DNA from: Psilocybe cubensis
Taxonomy: Eukaryota
Direction: 5' to 3'
Length of the DNA stretch: 64,000 bases
Assembly (NCBI GenBank): GCA_017499595.2
Contig: CM039002.1
Location: 1,116,001-1,180,000, forward strand
Numbering within the stretch: position 1 is the first letter of the stretch; each line of letters begins with the position of its first letter. Under the pieces are notes generated by a model. It was given only the letters and a program-made list of their open reading frames with translations. It was not told the origin of the DNA and did no database searches. The translations under genes were made by a program, and so were the position numbers. Positions 4,230 through 32,700 of the stretch are shown one piece after another.

Positions 4230-5097
4230 GCTTGGTTTCCAATTGGCGCGTTGGGGATACTCGCAGAGTCGCAGACCACGCTCTCCTCTCGCTGGCAATC
4301 TAGCGTGCGCTACGAATCTAGCGTGCCTCACACCTTCGTACAAATCTTGCCAGCCAGTTGCGCATTATCAATTGGCGGGAGGCTCACCACAACCGACCAC
4401 ATCTCACTGGATTATCTATTCCGGATGGTTGAGAGGTTGGAGTAGCACCTATCAAGTGGAGTCCATCTGATGCCCAGCCATCTAGAATTTTATTGATCTT
4501 GGTGCTTGCATTGTTTAACGATAGGCATCCGTACAGCTCCTTCCAACGGTCAAAATCCTCGTCGCGGAATTCGGGAACTACAAACTACACAACTACTCCT
4601 CTATACCTATCCCCAAAGCGACCTACGCAGCCAGGCAGCTTGAACCTATCCACTCATACCAGCCAATATGGAATATAGAGGGACTCAAGGGCCAATCACA
4701 TTGGCCCTTTAGCTGCTTCGCCAGCGGGACACGGTCCAGAGCATACACCGTCATTGCTCAATACGCGCTGGTGACGCTATTGGCGTACGACTATGACGAT
4801 GGTGCATCCCTGACTCGCAGCGCACCTCCACCGACGCCGTCGATGAATGTCGTTTCGCGACGAAGATGTCGATCTGCGACGGCACGCCTGCTGCGCTGGC
4901 CCTCAACGCACATTCACTATTATCGGCCTTCATGAGATGAGTCGTGTCTTTGGGTGTTCGTTTGTTACGCCGTCCCCGTCCCCGTCCCTGTCCTCGTCCT
5001 CATCCTCGGAGCACCCTGCGGTACACTGTAAATAAGGGTCCGTTGCGAGTGAAGTTCCGCCATGCATCGTATATCGTCGTCGATGACGATATCGGGT
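4230..5097 (+). pseudogene. Degenerate, 5'-truncated paralog of the F-box array gene
   Basis: Collinear similarity by eye to 8635-9370 (ttggtttcc.., cgcattatcaattggc, gtacagctcc.tccaacgg.caaaatcctcgt, SYIVVDDDIG vs SYLIADDNIG), with indels and stops. Confidence 0.8.
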
Positions 5098-7079: not shown

Positions 7080-7659
7080 CGAACGGGAAAGTATAAAAAA
7101 CGGGAACTGAATGGGTAGGCGGCGTTATTTCAAGTTTACTTTTTCCTCAAAAACGCCTCCTTTATAGGCATTTGGATTGTCTCTTTATAGATTCACCGTG
7201 ACTTTGTAAGCTCGAGGGATCAATAGACCGACAATTGGGGACCGGGAAGAGTGAATGCTACAGGATGACCTTCACAGAAGGACAAAGGTAACCTGACCAA
7301 AGCTGTGATTCATACATGATAATCTGAGCCCACGTAAACATCACAGTGCGATTGTGTATACAGTTGCAAAATTTGCACAAGATCTCACAAGATAGAAGCC
7401 CAGGGGACGGTGTTGCATGCAGACCATGTACCCATTCGCGAGTATTTTTAGTGAAGGTACTACCGAGGAATAACCGCTGCAGCACTTGATTACAGTCGTA
7501 ATTATCCGACGTCACATGGCGTAACTTTCGGACTGTCTGTAAAGATAAATCTCATGCATGAGGGACAATCTGGGAAAATAAACCTCACAAACGAAATGAT
7601 CTGTCTTGATTAGTACCTTGTTTCGGAAGTCGGAGATCCAAATTTGATTGCCAGCAAAC

Positions 7660-7701
7660 CAACAACAACAACAACAGCAACAACACAACAACAACAACAA
7701 C
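7660..7701 (+). repeat. Imperfect (CAA)n microsatellite in the spacer upstream of F-box copy 1
   Basis: caacaacaacaacaacagcaacaacacaacaacaacaacaac. The equivalent position in the other units has only caacaataacatcaac. Confidence 0.85.
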
Positions 7702-7832
7702 AGTGTCGACGTGGGCCCGTGGTACATTGATATTCTAAGTCCCATCGCCTTTGGAACTGATACTGCCCTAGTTAAACTGGCGACTTCGTTGTGTCGTCAT
7801 ACTTTGACGATATGACCTCCATTCTCGGTAGT

Positions 7833-9504
7833 ATGAATCGGTGGATTTTGCATTGGGTCAAAGACTTTTTTCTGGTTAGTTTCTTTATTTATGATGTAAG
7901 TAACACAACTCACATGAGTTAACACAGAAGACGCGTCCATATATCTTCAGAATACCTGTTGAACTGATTATCGAAATTCTCAAATTTTTGGAATGGAGAG
8001 AAGTGTTACTCGTGCGACAAGTATGTGGACAACGTCATTTATACCTTACTACAAGCCTAAAACCCGAAATCTAGACATGTAAATATCTTGCTGGTGTAAC
8101 TACGTCTCGGGCTATTTGGAAAGGACTTGTCGATGAATACCTTGTAACAAGCTTCATGCCGCCGAAGATAGAGCGACCACTCGCGTCGCATTCCTCTCAG
8201 GAGCTCGAGTGTCTATTCCTTCGATGGAAAAGTGCAGATCTTGCTTTTGGATCCGACAAATTTATTACTCCCCAAGAACGTACGTTTATGGGACCCAAGA
8301 CTTACTCCGTACGTCTTATTACAGGAGGGCGCTGGCTATTGAGCATACAGCAAACAGGGGCCGTGCAATACTACGACCTCGATGCAGAGATGTCTGTCGC
8401 CGTCGAGCTCATCCCAGCACAGAGTGAAGAAGCCGTTATTACGTCAACTATCGACTACGACATGGACGCTCCATTTCTGAAATTCAATATTGCGTTTTGC
8501 TACAAGTCTGAAGACGCGCTCGAGATGGAATCTCATAAATTTCGAGGAAATCGTTGTATATGCAAAATATGGAATGTCAAAGCCATCCTGGATGACACTA
8601 GGCATGTAATCGGCCTCATTGCTACACAGATCGCTTGGTTTCCATTTGGTGTGGAAGTGAACAGTGTGCCCATGTTCTCTCTTCTTGGATCAAATCTAGC
8701 GTGTATCACACATTTAGCGTCCCTTGCACCTTCCTACGAACCCTGTCTACTACGCATTATCAATTGGCAACAGGCTCACGAAAACCCTCTGCGTTATACA
8801 TTCCGGGTGGTTGAGAGGTTAGAACGCCAAGTACGGTTCTCCATTCCACCATGGAACATTTATTGATTTTGTTGCAACAACAGGCATGCGTACAGCTCCT
8901 GCCAACGGGCAAAATCCTCGTTACAGAATATGGGAATTACAAACTTTACGACTACTTATCTATACCTGAAGGGAATTATACGCCGGAACAACCTATAAGT
9001 TCTTATCAGCCAATCTGGAATATAAAAGGACCAAGTTGTGACTGGCCCTTCAACTGTTTCTTCACCGGGTCACGGGCATATGTCATCATCGGCGAATACG
9101 CGTTGGTGTCGATGCTGGCATTTGACTATGTGTCCCCAAGTGGCACCCCACCGTCTATGAATATCGTTTATCGAGACAAAACGGTCCTTCTACAAGAAAA
9201 AGGCACTTACGTTGGTGCGAAGCGTACAATTGCACTTGTTCGTCTTCACACACTTCGTATTTTGGATTATTCATCCTTCACAACGTCCAAGGAGCCGGTA
9301 GTACTCCGTCAAGAAGGGGTGACGAACATCAACATCATCTCCTACCTCATCGCTGATGACAATATTGGGAGATGTGTTTGTATATTTAATGGCTACGATA
9401 ATGGCAAATACAAGCACCAGACCGAATTTCATGTGGTAGATTTTGGCAGGCTGCCGAAACAAGTAGCTCAGTCCTGCCAAGCTATACTTGCGGACTGTCT
9501 GTAA
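7833..9504 (+). CDS. F-box protein, array copy 1 (4 exons)
   Basis: MNRWILHWVKDFFL|KTRPYIFRIPVELIIEILKFLEWREVLLVRQ|TCKYLAGVTTSRAIW (F-box consensus), then ORFs 8156-8866 and 8851-9504 joined by an intron. An in-frame upstream ATG exists at 7812. Confidence 0.85.
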
Positions 9505-9731
9505 AGATAAATCTTATGCATAATGGATAATCTATATAGGAAAATATGCTAATGCTTCGGAATTCGGAGATCCAAATTTGATTGCCAGCAAACCAACAAT
9601 AACATCAACTGTGTTGCAACTGTGTCGACACAAGTCCCCGTCGCCTTTCGAACTGATACTGCCCTAGTTAAACTGGTGACTTTTTTATGTCATCATAATT
9701 CGACGATACGACCACTAGAACTCTCGGTAGT

Positions 9732-11402
9732 ATGCATCAGTGGATTTTGCATTGGGTCAAAGATTTTCTTCTGGTTAGCTTCTTCATTTATGATATAGTA
9801 ACTTCATAACTCACATGAGTTAGCACAGAAGACGCGTCCATGTATCTTCAGAATACCTGTTGAACTGATTATTGAAATTCTCAAATTTTTGGAATGGAGA
9901 GAAGTGTTACTCGTGCGACAAGTATGTGGACAACGTCATTTGTAGCTTGCTACATGCCTCAAACCGGAAATTTAGACGTGTAAATATCTTGCCGGTGTAA
10001 CTACGTCTCGGGCCATTTGGAAAAGACTTGTCGATGAATACCTTGTAACAAGCTTCATGCCGCCAAAGACAGAGCGACCACTCGCGTCGCATTCCTCTCA
10101 GGAGCTCGAGTGTCTATTCCTTCGATGGAAAAGTGCAGATCTTGCTTTTGGATCCGACAAATCTATTACTCCCCAAGAACGTACGTTTATGGGACCCAAG
10201 ACCCACTCTGTATGTCTTATTACAGGAGGGCGCTGGCTATTGAGCATACAGCAAACAGGGGCCGTGCAATATTACGACCTCGATGCAGAGACGTCTGTCG
10301 CCGTCGAGCTCATCCCAGCACAGAGTGAAGAAGCCGTTATTACGTCAACTATCGACTACGACATGGACGCTCCATTTCTGAAATTCAATATTGCGTTTTG
10401 CTACCGAACACAAGATGCGGGCAAAATGGAATCTTATAAATTTCAAGGAAATCGTTGTATATGCAAAATATGGAATGTCGAAGCCATCCTGGATGATACT
10501 AGGCATGTGATTGGCCTCATTGCTACACGGATTGCTTGGTTTCCATTTGGTGTGGAAGTGAACGGTGTGCCCATGCTCTCTCTTCTTGGGTCAAATCTAG
10601 CGTGTATCGCATATATAATGTCTCTTTCACGTTCCTACGAACCCTGTGTAGTACGAATTATCAATTGGCAACAGGCTCACGAAAACCCTCTGCATTATCC
10701 ATTCCGGGTGGTCGAGAGGTTGGATCATCAAGTACGGTTCTCCATCTCACCATGGAACATTTATTGATTTTGTTGAAACAATAGGCATGTGTACAGCTCC
10801 TGCCAACGGGTAAAATCCTCGTTACAGAATGTGGGAATTACAAACTTTACGACTACTTATCTATACCTGAAGGGAATTATACGCCGGAACCACCTATATG
10901 TTCCTATCAGCCAATCTGGAATATAAAAGGACCAAGTAGTGACTGGCCCTTCCGCTGTTTCCTCACAGGGTCACAGGCATACATCGTCATCGGCCAATAC
11001 GCGTTGGTGTCGATGTTGGCATTCGACTATGTGTCCACAACTGGCACCCCACCGTCTGTGAATCTCATTTATCGAAGCGAATGGGCCGATATGCATCGAA
11101 GAGCCACTTACGTTGGTGCGAAGCGTACAATTGCGCTTGGTCGTCTTCACACACTTCGTATTTTGGAGTATTCAACCTTCACCACGTCCAAGGAGCCTGT
11201 AGTACTCCATCAAGAAAGGTTGACGAACATCGAGGTCATCTCCTACCTCATCGCTGATGACAATATTGGGAGATGTGTTTCTATATTTAATGGCTACGAT
11301 GACAGATACAAGCACCAGACCGAATTTCATGTGGTAGATTTTGGCAGACTGCCGAATCAGTTAGCTCAGTCCTGCCAAGTTATACTTGCGGACTGCCTGT
11401 AA
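9732..11402 (+). CDS. F-box protein, array copy 2 (4 exons)
   Basis: Same exon structure as copy 1 and intact; ORFs 10057-10767 and 11004-11402. Confidence 0.85.
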
Positions 11403-11623
11403 AGATAAATCTTATGCATAATGGATAATCTATATAGGAAAATATGCTTCCTCGTACTAACGAAATGATCTGCCTTATACATTAGTATCAAGTAAATTGT
11501 ACCGCCTCCAACTGAACCCCAATGGCATTATTGATCTTCACGGCTCTCACGCAAACATCAGGGCTCTAGGCTGTATATGTGACTGCAGTGTAATGGAAGC
11601 TATTTCTATATTTTACTCTTTCC

Positions 11624-14600
11624 ATGGACCGTTCTTCAACTAAAGAAACAGCACTTGAAGAAATTGAAGGCGTTTTGTCTGAGCCTCGCACACAAGAACA
11701 ATATACCGGTGCTATATGGACCACTAAACGTCCGGAGCTGTGGGCCTACTATCTATACTATGTAGGGAATAACGGACTTTCGGGTTTCAACTTTGGACCT
11801 TCCCAGTTCCAAAATTTGCTATTTCTTGCAGGCTACGATCCGGTAGCTGGCCCTGGTTCAGCATGCAGTGTGAACGGCTGTGTCTTGCCATATCTTGGAG
11901 AGATCCGCGACAGTAAGCCCCTTTCCTTGTTCTTTCTCATTGGCTAACGATCTATCATAGTCAACTCCATCGTCTTGCTTACGAATGGCATCAGTTTTGC
12001 TCTTCAAGCATTTCTGTTACTCCTCATCGGAGCATGGGCCGATTATGGAACTTGGAGGTCTGTTCGACTACGAAAAACCATTTCCTCTCTAAACGGTGAT
12101 ACTCAGGCCAAACATCACCATATTCTTCACATTGATGGCGGTGGGTGTGTCATTTGCCTGGCTTGGGGTTGAAAGTCCCTCCCAATGGCGAGCAGGTGTT
12201 GTCTTGTATATGCTTGGACGTAAGTAATAATGGATTTTTTCTATGGAACCAGCTCAATTTTCATCGTGTAGTTATTACTTATCAAGTATAATTCTCCCCT
12301 GAAACTCCCTCATAGATAATTGACCAACGGACGCTCAGTGTACCCTGACATTCTGGACTGCTGCATTTCCGGGGCTTGCTCAGAACCTTCCAGAAGTGCT
12401 GTTATCAAACAGCGAAGTAGCCAATGGTAGAAAAACGTTTGTTCTTCTTTCTATACCCTGTCCGACTGATGAACTGAGTTCTCCTTTTCATTGTGCGCAC
12501 AGGGTAGAAGAACATAACCGTTTCCACTCCCTTTCCCGCAATCGAATATCGAATATCTCGTTCGCTATTTGCTCCGCCGGGGAGTTGATCATTTTGGCGG
12601 TGATGGTCGGTATACTTCGAGGGATGCATTCAGAACAGAGTACCGAAAGCAATACCAAAGCATTTAGCGTCCTAATCGCTTTTTCCGGCGGCGTTTGGCG
12701 TAAGCAATATTTTGCAGCACTGAATACGCTAAACTTTATAATCACGACCTCGTTGTAGTGCTTTGTGCATTACCCTGGTTCATCCTTGAGAAACGCCGAC
12801 CGGGATTAGATCTTCCGCAAGGAACAAGTTTGTGGACAGTTGGATTCAAGCAGGTGTATGTCGCCTTTCGAGAATGTATGCGATTGAAGCACACCTTTCT
12901 TTATCTCGTCTTCTACTTCTTGATGTGAGAATTCTATGACATCACATTGCATTTCCAAATAATGATACCATCTTTTCTAGGGGCGATGTATTGAATACAA
13001 CTGTGTATGCGATACTTTCAATGAAATCTACATAATTGATTACATTAATGATACATATCCACTTTTGATAGGACTGTCATTGCCACCCTTCAGAATAGGT
13101 AAGATCGCTTGATATCTCTTTTTTTTTTTTTTTTTTTATTTTGTGTTATAGCCTCTGAGGGGTGGGCCCCTCCCTCGGCTTTATACTACTAAGCTACCTA
13201 CTCGCCCCATGGCGATCGTTCCATCCTCGACGCGACTGTGCACCACGGAGGGCCCTCACGTCCCCCCTCAAGGTCCAGCTTTCCTAGGCTGTTTCGTCGC
13301 CGTCTCCGGTTTTGGCGCAGGTTCTTTCGCTTCTTGAATCCTCGCGCTGTTGTACTTCTGACGTGGGTGTTTTTTGTTGTTCCCTTCCTGCTTTGTCCAT
13401 CTATTCCTCTTCTTCGATCCCTCTGTTCAGTAAGTCTTCCTTGTACGGCTTCAATCTCTTCGTCTTTGCTATGTACCGTAGGAGTGCTTTCGCGTTTTCT
13501 TGTTTTGTCGTTAATTCTTCCAAGTCGTAGCACCTTTCTCCGATTTCGTCCCATAATTGTTGTCTTTCCCGTTGGTAGCCTCTACATTCAAACACAAAGT
13601 GCTCCACTGTTTCGGTGGCTCTTACCCCGTCTCGTCGCTCCCAGCACCTGGGGCATGTCTTATCTTGCTCGAGCCTGAGTTTGCTGATGTGATTGTTAAG
13701 CGGGATATGTCCCGATCGCACTTGAATAAGCACGCTCGCTTGTGTCCTGTTCAGCTTTCGCAGCGCCTTTCTGAACTTGTTGAACGGGAACTCTGAGTCT
13801 ATGCCTTCGAACTTCGTTTTCCTATGTGAGGTGTTCCATCTCCCTCGCCATATCTCGAGTAGTTCCTCATGGTAGGCCTGTTTTTCAGCGGACGCGCTTT
13901 TCTTAATCGGGCTCGTTAGTTGTAATGGGAGTTCTTCGGGTGGTGAGCTGTCGCCTTCCGCTGCTCGCTTCGCTTCTTCATCCGCCCTCTCGTTGCCTAG
14001 GACGTCCGAATGTGCCGAAATCCAGTGTATTGTTATGTTTCCCTGCAGATTTTTGAATGCATCGTCAATGCTCTTCATCAGGTGCTGACCGGACTTAGCT
14101 TTGGGTCTCCTCAGGTTTTTCAGTAAGCCCTGATTGTCACTGAATACGTCGATGGTATCGTTGGCCGTGGGCGATTCGTTTTGAATCAGCTTGGAGGCCA
14201 GCAGGCCTCCTACCGCCTCCGCCTCGTACGAATTGTGTTCTTCCTTTGTCCCAAGGTATTTTCGTAGGACTTTGCCATGTCTGTCTTTCCTATCTCTCAG
14301 TAGGATTGCTGCTGCTCCTACCTTCCCATCGTGGCTCGATCCATCTGTGTATATGCGTATGCTGGCTGTGCTGCCCGCTTCGTATATCATTGACAGTTCT
14401 CTCGTTTGGGCAATCACGATTTTGAAGGGTGGGCGGTATTTTGGTGAATATGGCATCGGCTCTATCTTCTCGAAAGTACTGGGTTGTAGGTCGAAAATTC
14501 GGAGTAGGTTGTCAATCGGGGATTTGTGTCGTTTTGGTGGTCTTCTTTCCGCCTTCTCGATTACCGCATATAGTGGGTGACTTACCGGGAGGGTTGCCAT

Positions 14601-17600
14601 TCTGACTGCTGCCCTGTGGCAGGCTTTCAGCAGGGCTAGTTCTAGCGGTAGGACGCCCGCATGGGCGTCTAGCAGTTCCGTGGGTGTTGTCCTCATCGCG
14701 CCGGTTATTGATAGTGTTGCTTTCCTCTGTATTGTCGACATTCTTCTCAGCGCCGCCACTGATCCGATGTTGTTTCGATAACCCGGTGGTTTTGTTGGTG
14801 GTGTGTACCAAACGTCTATGCCATATGTGAGTCTTGGAAGTACCGTCGCGATGAACAGATGTCTTAGGAGGTACGGGTGTATGCCCGTCGTCGGTTTTGC
14901 CAGTCGTTGGAAGTTTGCTACCCATCTTGTTGCTTTGTCGGTCGCTGATTGAAGGTGAGTTTTCCAGTTTAGTTGGCAATCGACTTGGAATCCTAGGCAC
15001 TTGAACACATTGACTTGCGGCACTAGTTCGCCGTCGAACTCGAGTCTCGGGTGGGTTAGATTGTTAGGGTTTCGCGGGTCGAGGTGCATTACTGCCTGTT
15101 TGGCGGGGGCAAAGTTTGAGTTGTGGCTACTGCTCCATGTGAGTGCACCGTTCTCCTTATGGATTAAGTCACTCAGCTTGTCTGTTGTTTCGTCTGTATC
15201 ATTCCCTATTGCCATGATCGTAACATCGTCAACGTAGCCTATGGCATCCTCTCCGTCTTCGCGGTCAACTATTTCAAGCAGGTCAGCATTATATATGATG
15301 TAAAGTATCATTGATAATGGATCTCCTTGTCCTATTCCGTTATCAATCTCCATCAGTGCTGACACGAAGTCATCGAATTTGAGCTTGGTTTTCCGGTTCC
15401 TGAGCAGTTCTCGTATGAAGTTGACATATACTGTCGGTATGCGTCGTCGTCGTAAGTTGTGAATGAGTCTGTCCGTTACCGCGTTTGGAAAAGCCCCTTC
15501 CACGTCTAGGAACAGCATTGAGACTACTTTACCCCGCCTCCAGGCTGCTTTAACCTTGCTGACCATGTAGTGCATTGCGTCGGTGGTGGTTCTCCCAGGT
15601 CTGCCTCCGAAATGCGTGTTTGGTAACAACTTGTGTTCTTCGACCGCATGGCTTATTCTTTCCGCCACGATTGCCGTGAGGACCTTGGGCAGGGTGTTTA
15701 GGAGAGCTATTGGCCTGTACGCTTTTGGCGTTTTATAGCTGGGTTTGCCTGGTTTCTTCAGTACTACCGTCATTGAGTGCTTCCACGAGTCTGGGTAATG
15801 GCCTGTTTTAAGGATTGCATTGTAGATCGCGTGTAGCCGGTTCATGATGAGCGGGGCTGTTTTCTGCAACACGATGTTGGGTATTTCGTCGATTCCGCAT
15901 GCCTTGTACGGCGACAGACGTTCCAGCTGCCTCCTGATTTGTTGCCGTGTTATTCGCCCGTCGTCTGGGAGTGCTTCCGGGTATTCAAAATTCTGTGGTA
16001 CAGACGATTGAACCGGTTTTTTAGGAAAGAAGTTGTGCGCAAAGATCTTAGCTTTTTCCTCATTGGACGATACTTCCTCTTGTTCGTCGTACTCGTTGGT
16101 GACCGTCAGGGTTGGTATTCTGGGGCGTCCTCCATCCCCTATCGGGTTCTTGAAGTAGCGGTTTGCCGTCCAGATGTCGGTGCCTTCGGCGTCGAGTAGC
16201 CAGTCGTCCCAATGCTTGCGTTTTGTGTCGATTACGAGTCGAGCAAAGCTCCTCTTTGCTGCTTTGAATTCATCGTGGCATGGGTGGAGAGGGGTGGTGC
16301 GGAACTTGTGGTGTAGACGGCTCAGTCGGTTTTTGTAACGTTTGGCTTCTTCTATCTCGCTTGTCCACCATCGTTTGGCTTCGGGGAAGGGCTTTCTCAA
16401 CTTCACTTCCTTGTTGATGGTGTCCTGGAGTGTTAGTGTCAGCATGTTTACCGCCTCATCTATCTCTTCCCCTGAGTTCAGGTCCAGCTGGTCTTCTTGT
16501 TCTTCCAGTCGTTTCTCAAGCGTCTTGCAGAAGTGTTCCCAATTCACCGTACGAAAGTTTCTTTCCAGCGTTACTTTAGCGGTCTCGCATCGCATGTCAA
16601 TGGTTGTATGTATTGGGTAATGGTCGGTGTTGGCTGGCCGTGTTGCATAGTCGACTTTACATTGGATGACTGCATCGATGAGCTTTTCCGAGATAAAGAC
16701 GTTGTCCGGCCTTGAGAGCCTCTTTGTCACCATGTGTTCCAGCGTCGGCATTCCCTTGGGTAAGGCTTGGGCCATGTTGTGTTCCTCGATAAAGTCGATC
16801 AGTCGTTCCGCTTCCGCTAACGCTTGTGGTGTGAACAGTCGTTCGTCCTCGTCTCGGTCCCACATCGGGTGGTGATGATTGAAGTCTCCCGCCCACATTT
16901 GCATAGTGTCGGCTTTGTTGAGCTCCAGCTGATTTTCTTCTATATACCGCCTCAGTATTTGCAGCGTGCGTCCCGTGCGTCCTGGGTGATATATGTTGAA
17001 AATGAAGAGTGTTCCTCTGTCGCTTTTGATCTTTATTGCCGTCAAATCGTTTGTGTCCGGAAATGGGATTTCACACCAACTGCTGGTATCAAGATTCTTG
17101 TTGACCCAGATGCCTGAGCGGGTTACCTCTTCATTTGTTCTGCTTACCGGGTACACAGGGCGATAGTATGCGTTAGTTCTGATGTTGCCAAAGCGTGTTA
17201 TATGGGGTTCTTGAATGAGGATTACGTCGTAGTTGCTGCCGAGGCTACTGTTTATTAGCTCGAGGTGCGCTACCTCCGACTTGTTCAAGTTTATCTGTAG
17301 GAACCTGATTTGGGTGGTATGCTGCTCTGCGAGGATGGTAACACTCATCTTTTACTGGTCTCTTTCTTCTGAGGCGGACGCCGCCGTATCACTTTCTTTG
17401 CTCGCCGGGTTCGAGCTTGATGCCTTTGCTGCCTCTGGTTCGGGACTCTGCTCTGGTGTTTTCGGCAGTTGCGATCGATCTCTCGTTGGTGGCTCTATCG
17501 TCCATCTGGGGGATTGCCCCCTTGCGAAGCGGTTTCTTTGTATGGTCGGCGGCGCTGAATTTGTGTTCATACTCCAGGTCCACGGTTCGTCCGTTGGGAT

Positions 17601-20203: not shown

Positions 20204-20838
20204 ATTGTCTGTTGATCAAGAGAGAGGTTTATGCTAGTGACCGATCTCTTACCGATTCCATGTGGAATCGGACAGACACACGAGTGTAACTTGATAAGTA
20301 CATAAAGTCCTCAGTCCGGTGTATATCCTATCGGAGTTCAGATCTCACTCCCCGTCTCCTTGACTTGATCATAGACTGTATCGCGCCTCGGATAAATAAA
20401 AGAATTCTTACGGATTTTCTGGAGACTTGACCCTCTTTTCTTGCTTCATATCTTATTGAGCACACTTGTTACATGTCGTAATTGAAAGAATACGCCAAGG
20501 TCAATTACTTGCGTGCTTTTCGTTATCCGACCAAGCCGTGTGAATCGGCCGAATGAGACTTTTTAGCTCTCCTCACGCGCTCTATTTTTGACTTTGGACC
20601 TGACCAGTGACTCGGACAATGCACAAGTCGACCAACAGGGTCCCTCTCTACTCATCTGCACAACAAGGGATCCACATGGTTTGTTTGCCATAAAGCATAG
20701 AATCACTGCCATGAAGTTCCGCATGCCCATTCCGAAACCTGATATCTATTCTAGGATACACATCCATGTGTGGTTATAAACTGGCTCCACCAGCGCTTGC
20801 GCAGCCCACATATCCCGACGTGTGTGTCGCTAACAGTC

Positions 20839-22579
20839 ATGTCTACCTCTCGCTCTGCGGTAACTCGGCCTTCTTCTTCCGGTCCCCTGACTGGAAACAA
20901 TCCTGCTTCTGCCCTTGTTCCTGAGAATGTTGAAGCATCTGATACGTCAGAGTTGCCTGCCTACGTGCCGAGTACAAGGTCATCTTCAAGGTCCAGGAGA
21001 AGGGAATTTCCAGAATTCAAAGAATTTTCTTACGATGCGAAGAATCGAAAAGGAAAATCAGTCGTTATTCTCACTGTAATTGCAGAGCGGTCGTATTCAA
21101 AGCATATACCCACTTTTCTCCAAGACTCTCCTGTTAAAGGAAGAGTCCACCTTGACCTTGACAAGCCCGAATCTATCTTGTCTGTGGTTCTGAATGTAAG
21201 TCATTTCCTTCTTTGTGTTCTGTGTACGTTTCGCTTGAATGTATATCAGATACGAGGTGAATACCTTACGGGCGCCAATCCAGACCAGCAGCTCATTTTT
21301 CTTGACCTTGCCTATCCTCTGTGGTCGCAATCCGACGGTGATCCTCAAAGAATGAATGTTCTCAGAGAAACAGAATCTCTTACTCGCCAAGGATCCTCCA
21401 CCCTTTCTGCAAGATTCAACGGCCCGAAGCTCGTGGGTCAATATACGTGGCCATTTTGCATTACCCTCCCTAAGGAAGTCAGTGTACCGTATGGGAAAGG
21501 CAAAGCATTACGGTCCTTTGCTCTTCCTCAAACATTCAATGAGCGACATGCGAAAGGCAGCATTAGATATGAGATATCCCTCAGAATTAACCGCGGTAGA
21601 TTCCAGCCGAATTACAGGTATGTAATATTAGGCAGATCCACGGAAGATGTTAACGCATTTTAGGATCCCTGCAACAATTGGGTACATACCAATATCACGA
21701 CCTCCTCCATTCCCACCTCTCAGAAGTATGTGCTATCAAGAAGGGACAACACTTCTCGGCCCTACTATTGACCCTGACGGTTGGTTTTCTGATACTCCTG
21801 TCACTATCAAAGGGACAATATTTAGTGCCCGTGCAGTTCACGTTACATGCACAGTATGTACCAATCTTTGCACCTTCCCAAGTGACAATCTTGTTGATTA
21901 TCAAACTGTCCAATCAAGTTATGTTTGGCTAAGCCTGTCAGTGCATCAGCTTTTCTGATTGATCTGTGTGGTACTGACAATATCTTTTAGCTATGCTATA
22001 CTCGAGGCTCAGTGATCCCATTTTTTATGCGCCTCGAGAGCGACGACTTTCAGGCTCTGGATTTACTGTCTAATCCCAAGTCCATATCTGTCTCTCTCCA
22101 GAGACGTATCAAATATCATGCCTTTCCGGAGAAGGTGTTGGGCTCCTTTGCCAAGGATTCCGTAGAATATGTGCAGCAAGCTGTATGGTGGCCATCATCC
22201 GAAGGTGTGGAAGTCAATGTGGAACGGTTTCGATTTTTGAACGGAGAGCTGCATCTCAAGGCCGACACGAAACCCAGTTCAGCAATAGCAGATTTTTCTA
22301 TAGAGGTAGGAGGTCTACGTTTCGTATGTCATGGACAGACTGGACATTGAACTAATATTTAAACAATGACTGCTGCAGTACTCTGTTGTGCTCTTCCCTT
22401 TCAAGTCTGCCGGCTTCGAGGCTTCTGACAACGGACCGCTTCAGACATACCCCGTTGAAATTGTCACCTCCTTTGCACATGGGCCGCGGCCCAGAAAATA
22501 CGCGCCTCCTGGGTATGACGCAGATACACCCCCATCTATGGATTTTGTGAATTTGGATCCTGTGGCCTATAGTTCTTGA
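20839..22579 (+). CDS. Arrestin-like (alpha-arrestin fold) protein, multi-exon
   Basis: VKGRVHLDLDKPESILSV, GQYTWPFCITLP, LPQTF..IRYEI; PY-type motifs LPAY and PPGY. The start may include an upstream exon. Confidence 0.7.
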
Positions 22580-22918
22580 AGCCAAGCTCGCAGCGTCGTT
22601 ATGTGTATATTTCTTCCAATGCCAGGATTATTTTATTGTTTCTTTCTTTCTTTTTCGGGTTTTCTTAATTTATATGTAAGTGTGTACCTAGTTATTAGTA
22701 GTGTTAGTATACCATCTCTTTCCAATTCGGGACTGGTAATTGCAGGTTTGTGTATCAAATTCATGTTTGAACGAGCACCCGGCACTACTTGATCGAAAAC
22801 GCGTCACGACTGTCATAGTATGTAGGTTGTCATGTGACTTTAGTGATGACCAGTCCGTGAATTAGCTGCAGAAGTTTTTCGTCTTTGGGCATTGCCTACG
22901 AGTGCAGTCTAGCACGAA

Positions 22919-25820
22919 ATGCACCGCTGCCTCCGTTCAAGTCTTTCCCACTTCTCCAAAACACCTGGAGGAGCTACTTTTGGACATGCGCGTCGGAGCG
23001 CTTCTAGTGTTAATGCGCCATCTTCAATGCAGGCAGGGCCTTCAAAACACTCGCCGAAAACTCTACCTAAACCTGAGCGGCCGAAGGAACAAGTTGGAGT
23101 GGCAAAGAACACAAAGAACGACATTGTAAAACTGTATGACATGAAAAGGTCCTTGGATCCCGCTTTGGAAGAATCAGGGCAATTAGCTCAGATTATAGCT
23201 GAAGGTGAAGATGAAGACTCTTCGGAAATGGCTTTTTTACCTGGCACATTCGTTGAAATAAGGAAGTGCGTGATTACTCTCTTATGCCACTTACTCGTCG
23301 ATTTGATGTTTTCATGCAATTAGAAATGACCTTTCTGCTTATGGAATTGTGCTGGGAGAAGTAATTGAAGAACACAGATATGGCGTTTACACTCTGACGA
23401 CGAAAGGCATGATCATTAGCCATTTTCGTGCCGATGTTTACTTCGCTTTTCCAAACGTCATATCTGCGTCCCTGGCCGAGCGTTGCGATTTTAGCAACCC
23501 TACGGTAACTACAGAAAATAATTCCGCACGCGTAGAAGCCCTAAAAAAGCTGCGTGTATTGGTCGCCGAGGTTGAAAAGTATTCTGCGGGTATGTTGCAA
23601 CGGCCGATGAATGTGTACGTCGAGGTTATGTCAAACGACAAGACCAAATGGTCAACAACAACGGTATCGCACGTTGCCAATTTATTGTACGAACGCCCTA
23701 GCTTCATGGATTTTTACATGACACACAAGATGCTCATGGACCAACCACTTTATTATATCGCCAAGCCAGGTTACCTTAAAAATCAAGCATTCGCAGTACG
23801 GCCGCGACAGCAGGTAGAAGAGATAGAAACAGTGACTCGGTACATATACGATCATCGCATAAGCAGGTCCGACCAGCAAACACATTTCAAGAGGTTCGTT
23901 TCAAAGGCTTCAAAAGTGGTCAAGGAGTTCGAAAGGAGGAGGGATTCTGGACCGATCAGTCAGGAGAAAATTGAGGTGGAATGGGATGTAGAGGACCGAA
24001 TCTTCATTAATTTCCTCATCCGTTCGTTACAACCTCATCGATCCAACCAATTGGACCCCTACACAATGGGACGCACTGAAATCGTCAGAGCCATTTTCCA
24101 ACCAACAGAGCCAGTCAACGACGACATGACTCACCAACTTCTCATCAAGCTGGGTATCTTCGCACCATGGCACGACCTTCACGAATTCGTACCTTTTCTT
24201 AATCCCTGGGGTGACCTATATTCAAACAAGCACACCATCGAGACTGAAGCCAACGAAATTTTGAAGCTGTCGCACGCATCAACAGCTACAACAGGCTCTG
24301 TACTCGGTCCCATGGACCTCATCCCTTCGGATCCTCTGGAATCTGTTCGCCACGATTTTGGAAATGCTCGGGTGTTCGTCATCGATGACTTGACTGCACA
24401 AGAACTCGACGACGGTTTCTCCGTGGAGCGTATACCCTCTGAACCCGACAATTGCTGGATCCATGTTCACATCGCAGATCCTGCAAGCGTTATACACCCA
24501 AACCACGCTTTGGTCAAATTGGCACGTCAGCGGGGGTCCTCGTATTACCTTGCCCACAAAACGATCCCCCTCTTTCCGGTTGCCCTAGTCCACGATCCTA
24601 AATACTCGCTGTCACTCCAATCGCGTGACGGCGAATCTACCCGTGTTTTGACTTTCAGTACTAAAGTCGACAAAGACGGCAATATCCTAGACTACAAAGT
24701 ACGCGGAGGTCTCATTCGTAACGTCAAAAAAATCAGTTATGACGAAGTTGATATGGCCATCGGTCATGGCCTGGTCAAAAGATCGTTGCCATTTGGTGGT
24801 ACAATACCCTCCATCTCCGTGCCCACATCGCTGGATGAGGCCGACCTCGCAGATATTAAACTTGCTCAACAAGTGGCCCAAGGGCAGATACGTCGTCGTA
24901 TGAAGAAGGATGTTTTCATTTATGACGATCACTCTGCTCATGTTAGGTGGGACAGCACTATCCCTCCCAATATTGTTAGCCCAACTTTGGGGAGTAACTT
25001 ATATCATGGGTACCCTGACATGACATACGAAGTTTATACGATTGAAGAGTATGAATCTGGTTCCCGTTTGATTATAGCAGAGATGATGAAGTTGGCGAAT
25101 CGGACAGCATCGCGAGTGGTACGCGACCACAATCTACCTGTATTACGACGCACCATGGATCCTCCCATATTCAGCAACCCCGAAAGCAAACAAGAGATCA
25201 TGGACTTGCGATCACCTTCGGGGCATGTTTTGATGCAAGAAGTCGCGAAGCGCGTCGACCTCAATCCCGTCGGGATGTTCTGTTTGGAGCCGAAGCAGCA
25301 CTACGCTCTCGGGATTGAGGAAGGGGATGGTTATGCCCGTGCGACATCGCCTCTGCGCCGGTTCGAAGACATCGTGTGCCATTGGCAGCTACACCACATT
25401 CTGCTTGGATCCCAATCCCCGCGAGCGCCATTTTCTGTCGCCGACATCGAAGCCATTCTCGGGGACACGGAGATGGCGTTTCAACAGCAAAAAGTTGTCA
25501 ACAAAAGCATAAAGCTATTTTATTCCCTGATGTACATCAAGAGGTTTGCGGATGACGTTGCGAAAGGCATACGTGATCCCGGTCCAGTGGATCCTCTAGC
25601 TTCGATGTCGGCCTGGACGAAGAATACACCCCGGGTGGTGACAAATACGTCCCAGATGTCTTTGTCGGTAAACGTACCCCACCTGGGCGTGACGGCGCAA
25701 GTGGACGACCTTCCATTCAGCATGAGGAACCTTCCTGTCGGCAGTGAGTTGCGCGTCAAGTTCAAGTCAATTGATCTGGGTATCAAGAGGACAAAGATGG
25801 TTGTGTCGCTCGAGCAGTGA
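22919..25820 (+). CDS. Mitochondrial RNase II/RNB-family exoribonuclease (Dss1/Cyt-4-like)
   Basis: FVIDDLTAQELDDGFS, WIHVHIADPA, IIAEMMKLAN, YARATSPLRRFEDIVCHWQL; presequence-like N-terminus; one intron at ~23266-23323. Confidence 0.88.
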
Positions 25821-26625
25821 AGGCTCCTCTCGTAGTTGTATTTGGTTGGAGGGGATTTTTCGGTGCTGTGAACCCAGATCGCAGGGCGGCAAATCATCGA
25901 TTCAGACTGGGAATTTATATAATACATGTAGTATAATCATTGTTCTATAGATGTAGGCTCTCTACCAACTTGATACCTAATCATAATAACCCCAGCTTTC
26001 TATTGTTACGCCGGTCATTGCTCTACCAAACAAAGTTGGGGAATCCGACAATACTATATTATATTTCGCTTTTTGCGAAGTTGGATACTATCGTTTGTTG
26101 ACCGTCATCGCCTGGGTTTGGTACGATTGCAGTTCAACAAAGTGGTAGTGGGTCGGTGGTTAAGCGGCTTCAATTGGAGTCGGGGAAAGCCCTCACCAAT
26201 AAAATTTTGAATAACCAAGCAATTTCACTATGTGTTCTTGACAAATAGCTTAAACCAGAGAAGACACACGACACCGTCCTTAAATAGTACAAAAGTGAGA
26301 TTTGGAAAGCGAAAACAGCAAAAGGTAAAAGAAAAGACAGACAGAGGAACAGATGGGTTTTGTAACTGCATGGTAAAGATTTAGAGTCCATTTGACTGTC
26401 TACCATTGAATGTCCACCACATAAAACTCACTAACCAGAAGAAAATCTTTGACCCAATGCAAAATCAACCGATGGTGGTCATATCGTCGAATTATGATGA
26501 CATAACGAAGTCGCCAGATTAATTAGGGCAATATCAGTTCGAAAGGCGACGGGACTTACGGCGACACGTTGTTATTGTTGGTAGTGCTGCCGCCACAGCG
26601 CAGTGCAGTGACAGTGCAGCGTATT

Positions 26626-28290
26626 TCAGTCCGCAAGTATAGCTTGGCAGGACTGAGCTAGCTGATTCGGCAGTCTGCCAAAATCTACCACATGAAATTC
26701 GGTCTGGTGCTTGTATCTGTCATCGTAGCCAGTAAATATAGAAACACATCTCCCAATATTGTCATCAGCGATGAGATAGGAGATGACCTCGATGTTTGTC
26801 AACCTGTCTTGACGGAGTACTACAGGCTCCTTGGACGTCGTGAAGGATGAATACTCCAAAATACGAAGTGTGTGAAGACGAACAAGCGCAATTGTACGCT
26901 TCGCACCGACGTAAGTGGCTCCTTGATGCATATTGGCCCATTCGTTTCGATAAATAATATTCATAGACGGTGGGGCGCCAGGTGGGGACACATAGTCAAA
27001 TGCCAACATCGACACCAACGCGTATTGGCCGATGATGATGTATGCCCGTGACCCGGTGAAGAAACAGCTGAAGGGCCAGTCACAACTTGGTCCTTTTATA
27101 TTCCAGATTGGCTGATAAGAACATATAGGTAGTTCCGGCGTATAATTCCCTTCAGGTATAGATAAGTAGTCGTAAAGTTTGTAATTCCCATATTCTGTAA
27201 CGAGGATTTTGCCCGTTGGCAGGAGCTGTACGCATGCCTGTTGTTGCAACAAAATCAATAAATGTTCCATGGTAGGATGGAGAACCGTACTTGGTATTCT
27301 AACCTGTCGACCACCCGGAATGGATAATGCAGAGGGTTTTCGTGAGCCTGTTGCCAATTGATAATGCGTAGTAGACAGGGTTCGTAGGAACGTGAAAGGG
27401 ACACTAAATATGTGATACACGCTAGATTTGATCCAAGAAGAGAGAACATGGGCACACCGTTCACTTCCACACCAAATGGAAACCAAGCAATCTGTGTAGC
27501 AATGAGGCCAATTACATGCCTAGTATCATCCAGGATGGCTTCGACATTCCATATTTTGCATATACAACGATTTCCTTGAAATTTATGAGATTCCATCTCG
27601 AGCGCATCTCGTGATTGGTAGCAAAACGCAATGTTGAATTTCAGAAATGGAGCGTCCATGTCGTAGTCGATAGTTGACGTAATAACGGCTTCTTCACTCT
27701 GTGCTGGGATGAGCTCGACGGCGACAGACATCTCTGCATCGAGGTCGTAATATTGCACGGCCCCTGTTTGCTGTATGCTCAATAGCCAGCGCCCTCCTGT
27801 AATAAGACATACAGAGTGGGTCTTTGGTCCCATAAACGTACGTTCTTGGGGAGTAATAAATTTGTCGGATCCAAAAGCAAGATCTGCACTTTTCCATCGA
27901 AGGAATAGACACTCGAGCTCCTGAGAGGAATGCGACGCGAGTGGTCGCTCTGTCTTTGGCGGCATGAAGCTTGTTACAAGGTATTCATCGACAAGTCTTT
28001 TCCAAATGGCCCGAGACGTAGTTACACCGGCAAGATATTTACATGTCTAAATTTCCGGTTTGAGGCGTGTAGCAAGCTACAAATGACGTTGTCCACATAC
28101 TTGTCGTACGAGTAACACTTCTCTCCATTCCAAAAATTTGAGAATTTCAATAATCAGTTCAACAGGTATTCTGAAGATATATGGACGCGTCTTCTGTGCT
28201 AACTCATGTGAGTTATGAAGTTACTATATCATAAATGGAGAAGCTAACCAGAAGAAAATCTTTGACCCAATACAAAATCCACTGATGCAT
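26626..28290 (-). CDS. F-box protein, array copy 3
   Basis: Same 4-exon structure; ORFs 27255-27965 and 26626-27486. Ends ..ILAD* (two residues shorter than the others). Confidence 0.85.
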
Positions 28291-28557
28291 ACTACCGAGA
28301 ATTCTAGTGGTCGTATCGTCGAATTATGATGACATGAAAAAGTCACCAGTTTAACTAGGGCAGTATCAGTTCGAAAGGCGACGGGACTTGTGTCGACACA
28401 GTTGATGTTAGTGTTGGTTTGCTGGCAATCAAATTTGGATCTCCGAATTCCGAAGCATTACAATTTACTTGATAATAATGTATAAGGCAGATCATTTCGT
28501 TAGTACGAGGAAGCATATTTTCCTATATAGATTATCCATTATGCATAAGATTTATCT

Positions 28558-30228
28558 TTACAGACAGTCCGCAAGTATAGCTTGGCAGGACTGAGCTAGC
28601 TGATTCGGCAGCCTGCCAAAATCCACCACATGAAATTCGGTCTGGTGCTTGTATTTGTTATCGTAGCCATTAAATATACAAACACATCTCCCAATATTGT
28701 CATCAGCGATGAGGTAGGAGATGATGTTGATGTTCGTCACCCCTTCTTGACGGAGTACTACCGGCTCCTTGGACGTTGTGAAGGATGAATAATCCAAAAT
28801 ACGAAGTGTGTGAAGACGAACAAGTGCAATTGTACGCTTCGCACCAACGTAAGTGCCTTTTTCTTGTAGAAGGACCGTTTTGTCTCGATAAACGATATTC
28901 ATAGACGGTGGGGTGCCACTTGGGGACACATAGTCAAATGCCAGCATCGACACCAACGCGTATTCGCCGATGATGACATATGCCCGTGACCCGGTGAAGA
29001 AACAGCTGAAGGGCCAGTCACAACTTGGTCCTTTTATATTCCAGATTGGCTGATAGGAACATATAGGTTGTTCCGGCGTATAATTCCCTTCAGGTATAGT
29101 TAAGTAGTCGTAAAGTTTGTAATTCCCATATTCCGTAACAAGGATTTTGCCCGTTGGCAGGAGCTGTACGCATGCCTGTTGTTTCAACAAAATCAATAAA
29201 TGTTCCATGGTGGAATGGAGAACCGTACTTGGCGTTCTAACCTCTCAACCACCCGGAATGGATAATGCAGAGGGTTTTCGTGAGCCTGTTGCCAATTGAT
29301 AATGCGTAGTAGACAGGGTTCGTAGGAACGTGAAAGAGACATTATATATGCGATACACGCTAGATTTGACCCAAGAAGAGAGAGCATGGGCACACCGTTC
29401 ACTTCCACACCAAATGGAAACCAAGCAATCCGTGTAGCAATGAGGCCAATTACATGCCTAGTATCATCCAGGATGGCTTCGACATTCCATATTTTGCATA
29501 TACAACGATTTCCTTGAAATTTATAAGATTCCATTTTGCCCGCATCTTGTGTTCGGTGGCAAAACGCAATATTGAATTTCAGAAATGGAGCGTCCATGTC
29601 GTAGTCGATAGTTGATGTAATAACGGCTTCTTCACTCTGTGCTGGGATGAGCTCGACGGCGACAGACATCTCTGCATCGAGGTCGTAATATTGCACGGCC
29701 CCTGTTTGCTGTATGCTCAATAGCCAGCGCCCTCCTGTAATAAGACGTACGGAGTAAGTCTTGGGTCCCATAAACGTACGTTCTTGCGGAGTAATAAATT
29801 TGTCGGATCCAAAAGCAAGGTCTGCACTTTTCCATCGAAGGAATAGACACTCGAGCTCCTGAGAGGAATGCGACGCGAGTGGTCGCTCTGTTTTTGGCGG
29901 CATGAAGCTTGTTACAAGGTATTCATTGACAAGTCTTTTCCAAATGGCCCGAGACGTGGTTACACCGGCAAGATATTTACATGTCTAGATTTCGGGTTTT
30001 AGGCATGTAGTAAGGTATAAATGACGTTGTCCACATACCTGTCGTACGAGTAACACTTCTCTCCATTCCAAAAATTTAAGAATTTCAATAATTAGTTCAA
30101 CAGGTATTCTGAATATATGTGGACGCGTCTTCTGTGCTAACTCATGTGAGTTATGAAGTTACTATATCATAAATGAAGAAACTAACCAGAAGAAAATCTT
30201 TGACCCAATGCAAAATCCACTGATGCAT
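28558..30228 (-). CDS. F-box protein, array copy 4
   Basis: Same 4-exon structure; ORFs 29193-29903 and 28558-29208. Confidence 0.85.
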
Positions 30229-30562
30229 ACTACCGAAAATTCTAGTGGTCGTATCGTCGAATTATGATGACATAAAAAAGTCACCAGTTTAACTAGGGCA
30301 GTATCAGTTCGAAAGGCGACGGGGACTTGTGTCGACACAGTTGCAACACAGTTGATGTTATTGTTGGTTTGCTGGCAATCAAATTTGGATCTCCGAATTC
30401 CGGCAGCGAGTTTATTTTTGGATGATTTATGTGTTCACGTGCTCACGACGGTCCTCTGACGGACAATCCCGGACACCTTATTCCGCTCAACGACGTCGAC
30501 CACGACGAGCTCACCTAAACCCATTTTTCGGCTCGTCAAGGCTATAGCCTAACAGCTTCGGG

Positions 30563-32700
30563 ATGTATCGAGCTCTCCCTGTGTCGCGGCAGGCCGCCTC
30601 GACTTCCAACAGACAAGCTGTCAGAGTCATTAGACGGGTAAAGTTCAAGTATCCTTGTTAAATATCCAATCTTGACTATATATCCTTTGTAGCACCTGGC
30701 CACGGATACCACAACCCCGCCAAAGAAAAGCAAAGTACTTCGCCGCATTATTTTGACTACTGCTGGCTTAACTGGTACATTCTACGTTGGGAGCGCGTTC
30801 CTCGCGTTTAATAACCAGGCCTACTACGACATCTTCTCTGAACAAGTGCCTCTCGGTCAATCTGTGCTCGACTTCGGTGAGAGCCAAGGTTGGGACACTT
30901 TGACTGTCGGTGATGTCATCAATGGGACTACTGGGTTGGTTGTCACCACATACAATTTCGCGAAAGATATGATAAATGGAACCACGCCAGAAAAAAACAA
31001 GGCACCAGTTGAAACGAAATCTGCGGAACCCAAGTCCCCCTTCAAAGTGGTTAAACAGACGACTTCAGCCAAAATTGAACCTGCTGTACAGCAGGTGAAG
31101 AAAGAGGTTGAAGAAGTCAAGGAAGCTGTAAAGGAGGCGGCTGTCAAGGTGGAAGATGTAGCGAAGGAGGTCACCGACAAAGCTCGTATTGAATACCAAG
31201 ACTTAGTGAAGAGAGCGGAGGCTGCCATTGCTGGAGCCTCTAAAGACGGCAACCCCCCCAGCGTCATCACCATCGAGACCACAGAAGAGGAAGAAATCCC
31301 CCCTCCATCCTCCAAAAATGTTTATGATCGTCCCCTTCCCCTTGGGTTCGAGCCTCCTCCAGGATTCTCTCGCCCCGCACCTCCCCCCAAGCCCAAAGTG
31401 ACTGAAGCTGAAGCCCAAACACCTGTACCTGAACCCGAGCCAGTTGAACTTCCTTTAGTAGCGCCAGTTGTTGCCACTGCTTCAGAACCTATCATCACAC
31501 ATTTGGCCGGTACAATTGATAACCTTGCCAGTTTTTTGAAGTCGGATCCTAAAGCTGCTCAACAAGCTGGAGACGTTCTAGAAACTGCCAAAGGTGACTT
31601 GGCCGCCCTTGTAGATCGAATGGAGGCTGTCAAAGAACAGGAACGGGCTGCTTTGGAGGCGAAAATGGACGAGCAAACTCGGGAGTATAGCCTCAAACTT
31701 TTGGAACTGGAGATGGAAGCCCAGGATAAATTGGACCATCAAGAAGAAGGTTTCAAGCAACTCTTTGAACAGGAGCGCGCGAGTTTCGTACAGGCTTATC
31801 GGGAGAAGCTGGAACACGAACTCAAGGTTCAGACAGAGTTGATCAACGAACGGTAAACCGTTTTATGCGTTTGTCAAACTTTTGTCCTGATGCTTTAAAT
31901 TAGATTGAAGGAAGAGGTCATTGCCCAAGGAATTGAACTACAAAGACGCTGGATTCGAGAGATCAAAGTTCGCGTTGAACAAGAAAGAGGAGGCAGGCTT
32001 GCCAAATTGGACGAGCTTTCTGCCAACTTAAAACGCCTGGAAAGCATTGCTCTCATCAACTCTGCTCACCTCGACGAGAACATCCGTGTCCATTCACTTT
32101 GGTCCGCCATTCGCGCTCTTACGAACAGCGCTATTTCCTCCCCGGTGCGAAAACCTTTCCGAGATGAGCTCCGTGTACTCCGGCATATCACTGCGGCGAG
32201 GGAGGATCCTGTCGTTTCTGTCGTTCTTGATTCCCTGGAAAGCACTGATGTTCCTGATGTCGGCGTGGAACCATTGGCTGATCTTGCGACCTGGTTCACC
32301 AACGAGGTGGCCCCAAAAGTATCACAGGTTGCGTTGGTACCTGACGAAAATGCTGGCGTTTTGTCTTACCTCGCCAGCCGTGCTCTTTCGGGCCTCCGCT
32401 TTAAGCGCCAAGGACTCATCCCTGGTGATGACGTGCTGAGTGTTCTGGCTAGAGCCGAGTATTACCTGAACGAGAAGAACCTGGACAGTGCCGCACGTGA
32501 ACTAAATCAGCTCAAGGGGCCCGCAAAGGTTTTGCTACATGACTGGCTGGAAGCCGCCCGACGGAGACTAGAGGTCCAGCAGGCATTAGAGGTGAGCTCA
32601 CAAAATAGAATAATTTACAGGTGTCCAAGTTACTCAAATAATAAATTACAAATAGGTGGTCCAGACGCAAGCCACATTGGCTTCGCTTCTTGTCGTATAG
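30563..32700 (+). CDS. MIC60: MICOS subunit Mic60 / mitofilin
   Basis: Presequence MYRALPVSRQAA, TM segment, YYDIFSEQVPLG, coiled coil, VEQERGGRLAKLDEL, mitofilin domain DVLSVLARAEYYLNEKNLDSAARELNQLKG..DWLEAARRRLEVQQALEV. Confidence 0.93.

Follow-up and report, generated by a model that had tools for sequence, protein, structure and literature searches.

What has made four neighbouring F-box genes of a mushroom alike in one part and, in another, different in short patches that contradict one another about which copies are closest? We addressed this question in a 64,000-nucleotide window of Psilocybe cubensis (GenBank assembly GCA_017499595.2, contig CM039002.1, positions 1,116,001 to 1,180,000; coordinates below count from the first base of the window). 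Self-BLAST of the window found a 1.9-kb unit four times, two per strand, and each unit holds a gene with four exons, GT-AG introns and an intact frame of 500-503 codons. Copy 1 (c1; 7833-9504, plus strand; 503 residues) has exons at 7833-7874, 7928-8020, 8075-8830 and 8884-9504; copy 2 (c2; 9732-11402, plus strand; 502 residues) at 9732-9773, 9829-9921, 9976-10731 and 10785-11402; copy 3 (c3; 28290-26626, minus strand; 500 residues) at 28290-28249, 28193-28101, 28046-27291 and 27237-26626; and copy 4 (c4; 30228-28558, minus strand; 502 residues) at 30228-30187, 30131-30039, 29984-29229 and 29175-28558. An original prediction, made from the letters alone, had described these genes as mosaic F-box receptors that possibly shuffle cassettes. 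Our analysis suggests that they are probably a young array of substrate receptors for Skp1-cullin-F-box (SCF) ubiquitin ligases, shaped by ordinary exchange between copies and by diversifying selection on the substrate face.

The alignment of the four copies comprised 1821 gap-free columns with 60 informative sites, of which 43 group c1+c4 against c2+c3, 16 group c1+c3 against c2+c4 and 1 groups c1+c2 against c3+c4. Fourteen of the 16 form one consecutive run (codons 189-261), and none of 200,000 permutations reached as few switches between groupings (p = 5e-6); when neighbouring sites were merged into 25 clusters, p was 0.006. The variable patches named in the original prediction were all found in the four copies, as were its open frames and its two conflicting groupings, and the exchange between copies that it proposed, by gene conversion or unequal crossover, is supported by the permutation test and by the distances over individual tracts. 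It had missed a third grouping, of c1 against c2, c3 and c4, which extends over the promoter, exon 1 and intron 1; the promoters of c1 and of c2-c4 differ at about 15% of sites. Its claim that the F-box and scaffold are nearly identical does not hold for the DNA, where this part shows 8-26 differences per 566 bases among copies, although purifying selection was found there.

Copy 4 is the patchwork copy. From the promoter to intron 1 it differs from c2 at 3 of 273 positions and from c1 at 40 of 268; from exon 2 to codon 187 it is nearly equidistant from all copies (20-26 of 566), with a c1-type intron 2; in the middle block it differs from c2 at 2 of 234 bases and from c1 at 30; and over codons 355-465 it shows 0 of 329 differences from c1 and 42 from c2. 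Two of its tracts, both on the minus strand, cover parts of the β-propeller predicted below: 29337-29554, held in common with c2 (10406-10623), spans blades 2-3 and includes two top loops, and 28670-28998, identical to c1 (9061-9389), spans blades 5-7 and includes a hypervariable loop. The second crosses a run of 51 polymorphic sites without a difference (p = 5e-5). Since c1 and c3 differ at 16 of 234 bases in the middle block, their grouping there reflects a shared older state and not recent identity, and a single recent transfer between c2 and c4 would suffice to explain the conflicting groupings. We also considered a reciprocal swap between pairs of copies, which is unneeded because c1 and c3 lack recent identity in the middle block, and exon shuffling, which is ruled out because the tract ends lie within exons 3 and 4.

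The tract ends coincide with neither exons nor blades, and ordinary homologous exchange is enough to produce them, so the idea of cassette shuffling as a dedicated process is not supported. No recombinase gene was found among the 26 open reading frames or pieces scanned, and the tract boundaries showed no repeated motif. With two middle-block and two late-block types, the array contains every one of the four combinations. Polarisation with outgroups, which at 55% identity or less are too distant to fix direction, makes most middle-block changes appear derived on the c2/c4 side, with residue 246 pointing the opposite way. Private sites are most numerous in c1 (62 of 1821 columns), and the nonsynonymous-to-synonymous (N/S) ratios of private changes are 0.40, 0.68, 0.44 and 0.10 in the four copies.

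Where these differences fall on the protein was examined with a predicted structure. The copy 1 protein is identical to residues 8-510 of a sequence named Psilocybe cubensis F-box protein (P0001), in which Pfam places an F-box-like domain (PF12937) at residues 29-69 (27.0 bits; cut-off 24.3); all four copies keep this region in frame and almost unchanged. P0001 was folded together with 97 relatives (98 proteins, selected by length and by eye from 161 retrieved), which gave a model with a mean predicted local distance difference test score (pLDDT) of 87.8, comprising the F-box, linker helices and 28 strands, which we read as a predicted seven-blade propeller following the F-box, as in Fbw7 and Cdc4. 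The first 15 Foldseek ranks were all Fbw7, Cdc4 or β-TrCP/FBXW11 chains (E 8e-14 to 5e-11), and VIA-align superposed the model on propellers with Z of about 20-22 and a root-mean-square deviation of 3.3-4.9. No match to any WD40 Pfam family appeared at E up to 0.05-0.1. Loops were assigned to faces by strand order and not from coordinates, with the first strand closing blade 7 and the d-a and b-c loops taken as the top, where they are described as lying in HET-E (PMC1805685, in part). By eye, third-strand ends that resemble the WD40 motif and glycine turns after each first strand fit the register.

Variable residues are concentrated in the top loops, where 29 of 90 residues are affected, compared with 10 of 92 in the bottom loops (p = 5e-4); strands have 30 of 190, and the F-box and linker 9 of 111. 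Synonymous changes are spread evenly over the two faces (5 of 90 and 6 of 92), and when loop ends were widened and the densest loop excluded, the difference between top and bottom persisted (p 0.011-0.013). Five paralogs from P. cyanescens show the same bias (51 of 101 versus 30 of 95, p = 0.009), and two of five quartets of these contain clustered conflicting sites (p = 4e-4 and 0.026). In P. cubensis, the variable patches share a single surface, the top of the propeller as predicted by the model. P. cyanescens has its own expansion of the family (P0004-P0008, 75-88% identical), in which the bias towards the top face is accompanied by protein-level hints of mosaicism.

The ratio of nonsynonymous to synonymous substitution rates (dN/dS) varies with structural class in the same direction: it is 0.37 in the F-box, linker and C-terminal end, 0.53 in strands, 0.45 in bottom loops and 1.53 in top loops (heterogeneity p = 5e-6), and the top loops exceed the bottom loops at p = 8e-5. 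The extreme case is the top loop between strands d5 and a6, codons 395-404 (c1 9175-9204 on the plus strand; c2 11076-11105; c3 26917-26946; c4 28855-28884), where 10 of 10 residues vary and dN/dS is 6.9. Differences in this loop fall at codon positions 1, 2 and 3 in the proportions 7/5/2 (c4-c3) and also 6/7/2, and ten consecutive variable residues arose in 0.04% of 20,000 neutral simulations. When branch lengths were fitted to the loop separately, in case it is an imported tract of greater age, its dN/dS was still 7.4 (p = 0.003). Diversifying selection on this loop is likely; the rest of the top face cannot be told from relaxation. The predicted clustering of amino-acid-altering changes in the presumed substrate region is thus upheld as a crowding in top loops; positive selection across the patches in general is not supported, the site test giving p = 0.25.

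We propose that a young head-to-tail array encoding an F-box, a helical linker and a seven-blade WD40-like propeller, in the order c1-c2-c4-c3 with a fifth remnant, would have been split by an inversion in the haplotype of the window. Copies that misalign would cross over unequally and undergo gene conversion, trading 200-330 bases at a time through ordinary homologous recombination. The F-box should dock on Skp1, judging from its family, and the top face of the propeller would hold the substrate, as in Fbw7. Purifying selection would keep the F-box, the linker and the bottom face, and the top face would evolve freely, under diversifying selection in at least one loop. Each tract would bring two or three top loops, so that binding surfaces would be recombined and the scaffold retained, and two middle-block by two late-block types would yield four distinct top faces, presumably with changed specificity. 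The ancestral tandem order, Skp1 binding, top-face substrate binding and the change in specificity are elements that we infer. As to the targets, fast-changing foreign or selfish proteins (of viruses, transposons or non-self) are plausible, though short of probable; the alternative is that they are the fungus's own developmental proteins. It is rather improbable that the strongest form of the idea holds, in which tandem copies trade top-face blocks to gain new specificities against viral, transposon or non-self proteins. Such an array would be the equivalent, among ubiquitin ligases, of the het WD40 repertoire of Podospora; copy 1 would be its principal site of expression, and the inversion would fix certain block combinations.

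Receptors of the Fbw7, Cdc4 and β-TrCP type are single-copy. They present the same order of F-box, helical linker and propeller (PDB 7t1y, 2ovq, 3v7d, 6wnx and 1p22), and differ from the array proteins in sequence (9-14% identity) and in the absence of a Pfam WD40 match from the latter. Fbw7 is described as binding its degron on the top surface (PMC8797792, in part). These are conserved receptors for fixed phosphodegrons, whereas the top face is the most variable part of the array proteins. In the NWD/HNWD family of Podospora anserina (het-d, het-e), passages of two papers report that the d-a and b-c top loops are under diversifying selection and that loci exchange sequence, either in unequal crossing-over or in conversion (PMC1805685; PMC13449251). 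A fungal propeller, variable top loops and exchange between loci are an evolutionary signature common to both. NWD/HNWD proteins are NACHT-type NOD-like receptors (NLRs) with near-identical blades shuffled as repeat units, aided by repeat-induced point mutation, and with a proven function in incompatibility; in the array, by contrast, the blades appear unlike each other, exchange would occur in register between whole-gene paralogs and the effector would be an F-box. We found no NACHT domain in the Pfam scan or the model of the array protein, and no blade-to-blade DNA repeats inside a copy by self-BLAST at E 1e-8. The sign of diversifying selection of the NWD/HNWD type was strong in one d-a loop; dN/dS was about 1.0 in the other top loops, and the site test was negative (p = 0.25).

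The unstable F-box genes of Caenorhabditis and plants, the subject of an original paper by Thomas in 2006, carry other C-terminal domains. They are described as undergoing tandem birth and death, with a conserved F-box and dN/dS peaks in the substrate-binding part, and recognition of foreign proteins has been proposed for them (PMC8665587, in part). The array shares recent tandem duplication with turnover, a conserved F-box and elevated dN/dS in the substrate domain (0.37 versus 1.53); it belongs to another kingdom, and PMC8665587 has 0 occurrences of gene conversion. Agaricomycetes have 67-1,199 F-box genes per genome, reported to stem mainly from recent tandem duplication (10.1101/349894, in part), and passages on this expansion describe it as tandem-derived and developmental (10.1101/349894; PMC10282164). 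This account is developmental, and the passages of 10.1101/349894 concerned report neither selection on a binding face nor exchange of tracts. The array belongs to this expanded Agaricomycete set and probably works like the nematode unstable F-box genes. A literature search outside subscription papers found none that deals with the locus, nor any that reports selection or gene conversion acting on F-box propellers of fungi. Mushroom-forming fungi hold hundreds of F-box genes, a number put down to development in the passages above. This locus permits a direct test of immune-like recognition, with a predictable fold, a mapped variable face and four natural block combinations, and differences between isolates in array make-up and orientation add to that value. 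Should population data confirm selection and a foreign substrate come to light, fungi would have a recognition system of F-box proteins beside that of NLRs; otherwise the locus would be a neat example of conversion between recently duplicated genes.

The copies are not equal as genes. An in-frame upstream ATG at 7812 gives copy 1 seven extra residues (7812-9504, plus strand), and the matching codon is ACG in copies 2-4. Copies 2-4 also carry a competing TAG acceptor 5 bases before that of intron 1, absent in c1, the use of which would be expected to shift the frame ahead of the F-box. Copy 2 matches P0014 and copy 4 matches P0013, each from residue 73, and the public models of copies 2-4, which begin at that residue or are fusions, are for the most part without the F-box. 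The cluster at 90% identity has six members, all from P. cubensis (JR316_0005833, 0005837, 0005838 and three UniRef records). Protein identity among the four copies is 85-94%, compared with 55% over exon 3 for the nearest outside relative; 338 cluster representatives match the protein at E up to 0.001, and it sits among Basidiomycota F-box clusters. Alleles of exon 4 were sought among proteins of 111-356 residues, where none of 31 candidates qualified.

Transcription was assessed from read data covering four of the 14 listed sequencing runs over positions 10800-30799, which places c1 and the 5′ half of c2 outside; 40 of 275 variant rows and 15 of 26 joints underlie the results that follow. No run containing the locus was annotated as RNA; one, X10, was treated as such solely because its contigs skip GT-AG introns. 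Introns 1, 2 and 3 are missing from them as the gene models predict, and at the listed sites they have the letters of c1, at a depth of 35-103, whereas binned depth is 1.4 over the 5′ half of c4 and 9.8 over exon 4 of c2. Copy 1 is expressed, and transcription is clear for this copy only, in one RNA run; contigs lose rare forms, and a single RNA run cannot prove the silence of copies 2-4. For the original prediction, which requires that the copies be expressed, there is thus spliced RNA of at least copy 1.

Several results weigh against diversifying selection on a working repertoire. Over the whole gene, dN/dS is 0.31-0.61 in all six pairs, and comparison of models M2a and M1a over five segments with their own trees was not significant (2dL 2.77, p = 0.25), with 58% of sites fitted as neutral. 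Top-loop dN/dS exceeds 1 at p = 0.054 only, and at p = 0.34 when two strand residues are added per loop end. The loop at codons 395-404 was picked post hoc, its p of 0.003 becoming about 0.08 over 27 loops, and the other top loops have a dN/dS of 0.99. Family-wide, top loops are the least conserved class (0.20 versus 0.38), which fits relaxation too, and the selection tests contained only four sequences. To these are added the scant RNA of copies 2-4 in the single RNA run, their missing upstream start codon and competing TAG acceptor, and their public models that start at residue 73 without the F-box.

Much of this would be accommodated if the array consisted of neutral young duplicates, with c1 working, the spares relaxed, conversion a by-product and the hypervariable loop an older tract from a lost paralog or a clustered burst of mutation. 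We regard this as unlikely, while taking it seriously. The negative site test with its large neutral class, the ratio of 0.99 outside codons 395-404, RNA contigs with c1 letters only at the listed sites, public models of c2-c4 without the F-box and the family remnants and fragments that flank the array all speak for it. Yet four frames are open, with the private-change N/S ratios given above; loop differences avoid third positions, unlike those expected of an old neutral tract; loop dN/dS is still 7.4 when the loop is given its own age; and the bottom loops, which are exposed too, have a dN/dS of 0.45.

Developmental sub-functionalisation would make the copies stage-specific receptors for the fungus's own proteins, with a one-off specialisation of the top face and no arms race; it equals our preferred explanation in all except the target, and we find it doubtful. 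Mushroom F-box genes are tandem-expanded and many are described as peaking at single stages (10.1101/349894, in part), and the promoter divergence between c1 and c2-c4 would suit such a division of labour. Own-protein substrates, however, would be expected to change slowly and to keep a binding face conserved, and the array seems to vary among isolates. Very unlikely is a system resembling antigenic variation, in which only c1 is expressed and c2-c4 donate tracts as silent copies. Only c1 retains the upstream start codon and a promoter of its own; it dominates the RNA run, c1 and c4 are identical over the late block and all four block combinations are present. Against it, the patchwork is in c4 and not in c1, and c1 has the most private sites. 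The lack of a recombinase gene among the pieces scanned or of a repeated boundary motif, the similar shares of c1-type middle-block letters in both DNA runs and the inability of a single RNA run to prove silence count against it as well. An assembly artefact, in which chimeric copies were built from two haplotypes, is extremely unlikely: near-identical repeats in a dikaryon are prone to chimeras and a few assembly letters find no read, but about four copies are present by depth in two other runs, reads cross the c1-c2 junction, and the c3 middle block, at roughly double the single-copy depth, shows letters of both the c1 and the c3 type.

The read data behind this judgement come mainly from two raw DNA runs, X13 and X14, with a single-copy depth of 34-35. 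Summed over the 5′ halves of c3 and c4, depth reaches 3.9 and 3.7 times that value; about four copies therefore exist in these runs, which argues that the array is not a misassembly, and 15 and 24 reads, respectively, support the c1-c2 junction. Short reads cannot phase a whole gene, and individual tract ends are unproven. At most listed sites in the c3 middle block, 26-41% of reads have the c1 letter, so these two copies have one block type in these runs as well. Of the letters private to c1 in the window, four are found in 63-76% of reads and one in 13-16%. Five letters belonging to c3, c4 or the flank of c4 occur in none of the reads that cover them in either DNA run; alleles therefore differ, and the distribution of variants over the copies is not the same in other isolates. 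In X7, the c2/c4-type middle block is covered by one contig that has 6 other letters and three times the depth of the flank. This suggests that the array is composed differently in that run, although depth is a poor guide in contigs. X7 has no contig over the c3 middle block, and contig holes prove nothing.

The orientation of the array also varies. An opposite-strand joint between 11502 and 30402 is carried by 14 reads in X13, 16 in X14 and one X7 contig at single-copy depth, which leads from the side of the mitofilin gene into sequence immediately to the right of 11502; the segment 11502-30402 is inverted relative to another haplotype. The c2 flank stops at 11501 and the c4 head begins at 30402, and these are the two halves of a junction that is intact between c4 and c3. 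The other haplotype is therefore most likely c1-c2-c4-c3 head to tail, followed by the head of the fifth-unit remnant, and the inverted-pair layout in the window is probably a head-to-tail array broken by an 18.9-kb inversion polymorphism. For X13 and X14 the read counts favour a heterozygous inversion, by a likelihood ratio of 3-28 according to how much overlap is assumed, and the orientation in the window is probably a real variant and not a misjoin. The second junction of the other haplotype has no row of its own, since its reads fit the c4-c3 junction. A shufflon-like flip-flop through inverted copies was rejected, as the inversion ends at a unit junction and in unique sequence, not within homologous genes, and as the pieces scanned included no recombinase. 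In the other haplotype, an ATG22-like gene (from about 11594) and the mitofilin gene would stand head to head about 250 bases apart. The inversion sets the head of copy 4 beside the mitofilin promoter, and it could change the expression of copy 4 and of the ATG22-like gene.

Pieces of further units mark the edges of the array. Upstream of copy 1, self-BLAST and alignment identify a homologue of the gene end, with the last codons and 3′ flank (7524-7620, plus strand), which may be a unit boundary or a remnant of another copy. The last residues of the protein (9487-9504) have no counterpart in relatives and low model confidence, and match sequence upstream of c1 (7524-7545); this C-terminal tail may be read-through into a duplicated unit boundary. 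The copy 1 promoter contains a CAA-type microsatellite (7654-7703) that is shorter or degenerate in copies 2-4. Behind copy 3 lies the head of the fifth unit, a promoter and a damaged exon 1 (26431-26580, minus strand; self-BLAST and alignment). Between the two is the 46-base end of a multi-copy element (26581-26626), seen in loose-end reads, of which there are more than 100 per side in both DNA runs, uniform on one side and running into many flanks on the other. Copy 3 lacks its final two codons and 3′ flank, and the element piece removes those two codons.

Within the inverted segment, Pfam matches and a 12-base target-site duplication identify a full-length non-LTR (long terminal repeat) retrotransposon (13109-19188, minus strand) with two intact open reading frames (gag-like; endonuclease, reverse transcriptase and RNase H) and a poly(A) tail. 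It apparently lies inside an intron of the ATG22-like gene in opposite orientation and is absent from X7, where contig 6 holds the empty site; it is no part of the F-box system. Three more genes, at 48650-51857 (minus strand) and 61171-62561 (plus strand), resemble F-box/leucine-rich-repeat genes by eye, with Pfam leucine-rich-repeat hints below cut-off. Two family fragments with frame breaks lie at 38091-38448 (minus strand) and 4282-4866 (plus strand), and an older member of the family, a single gene matching P0003 at about 36-41% identity, lies at 39125-40756 (minus strand).

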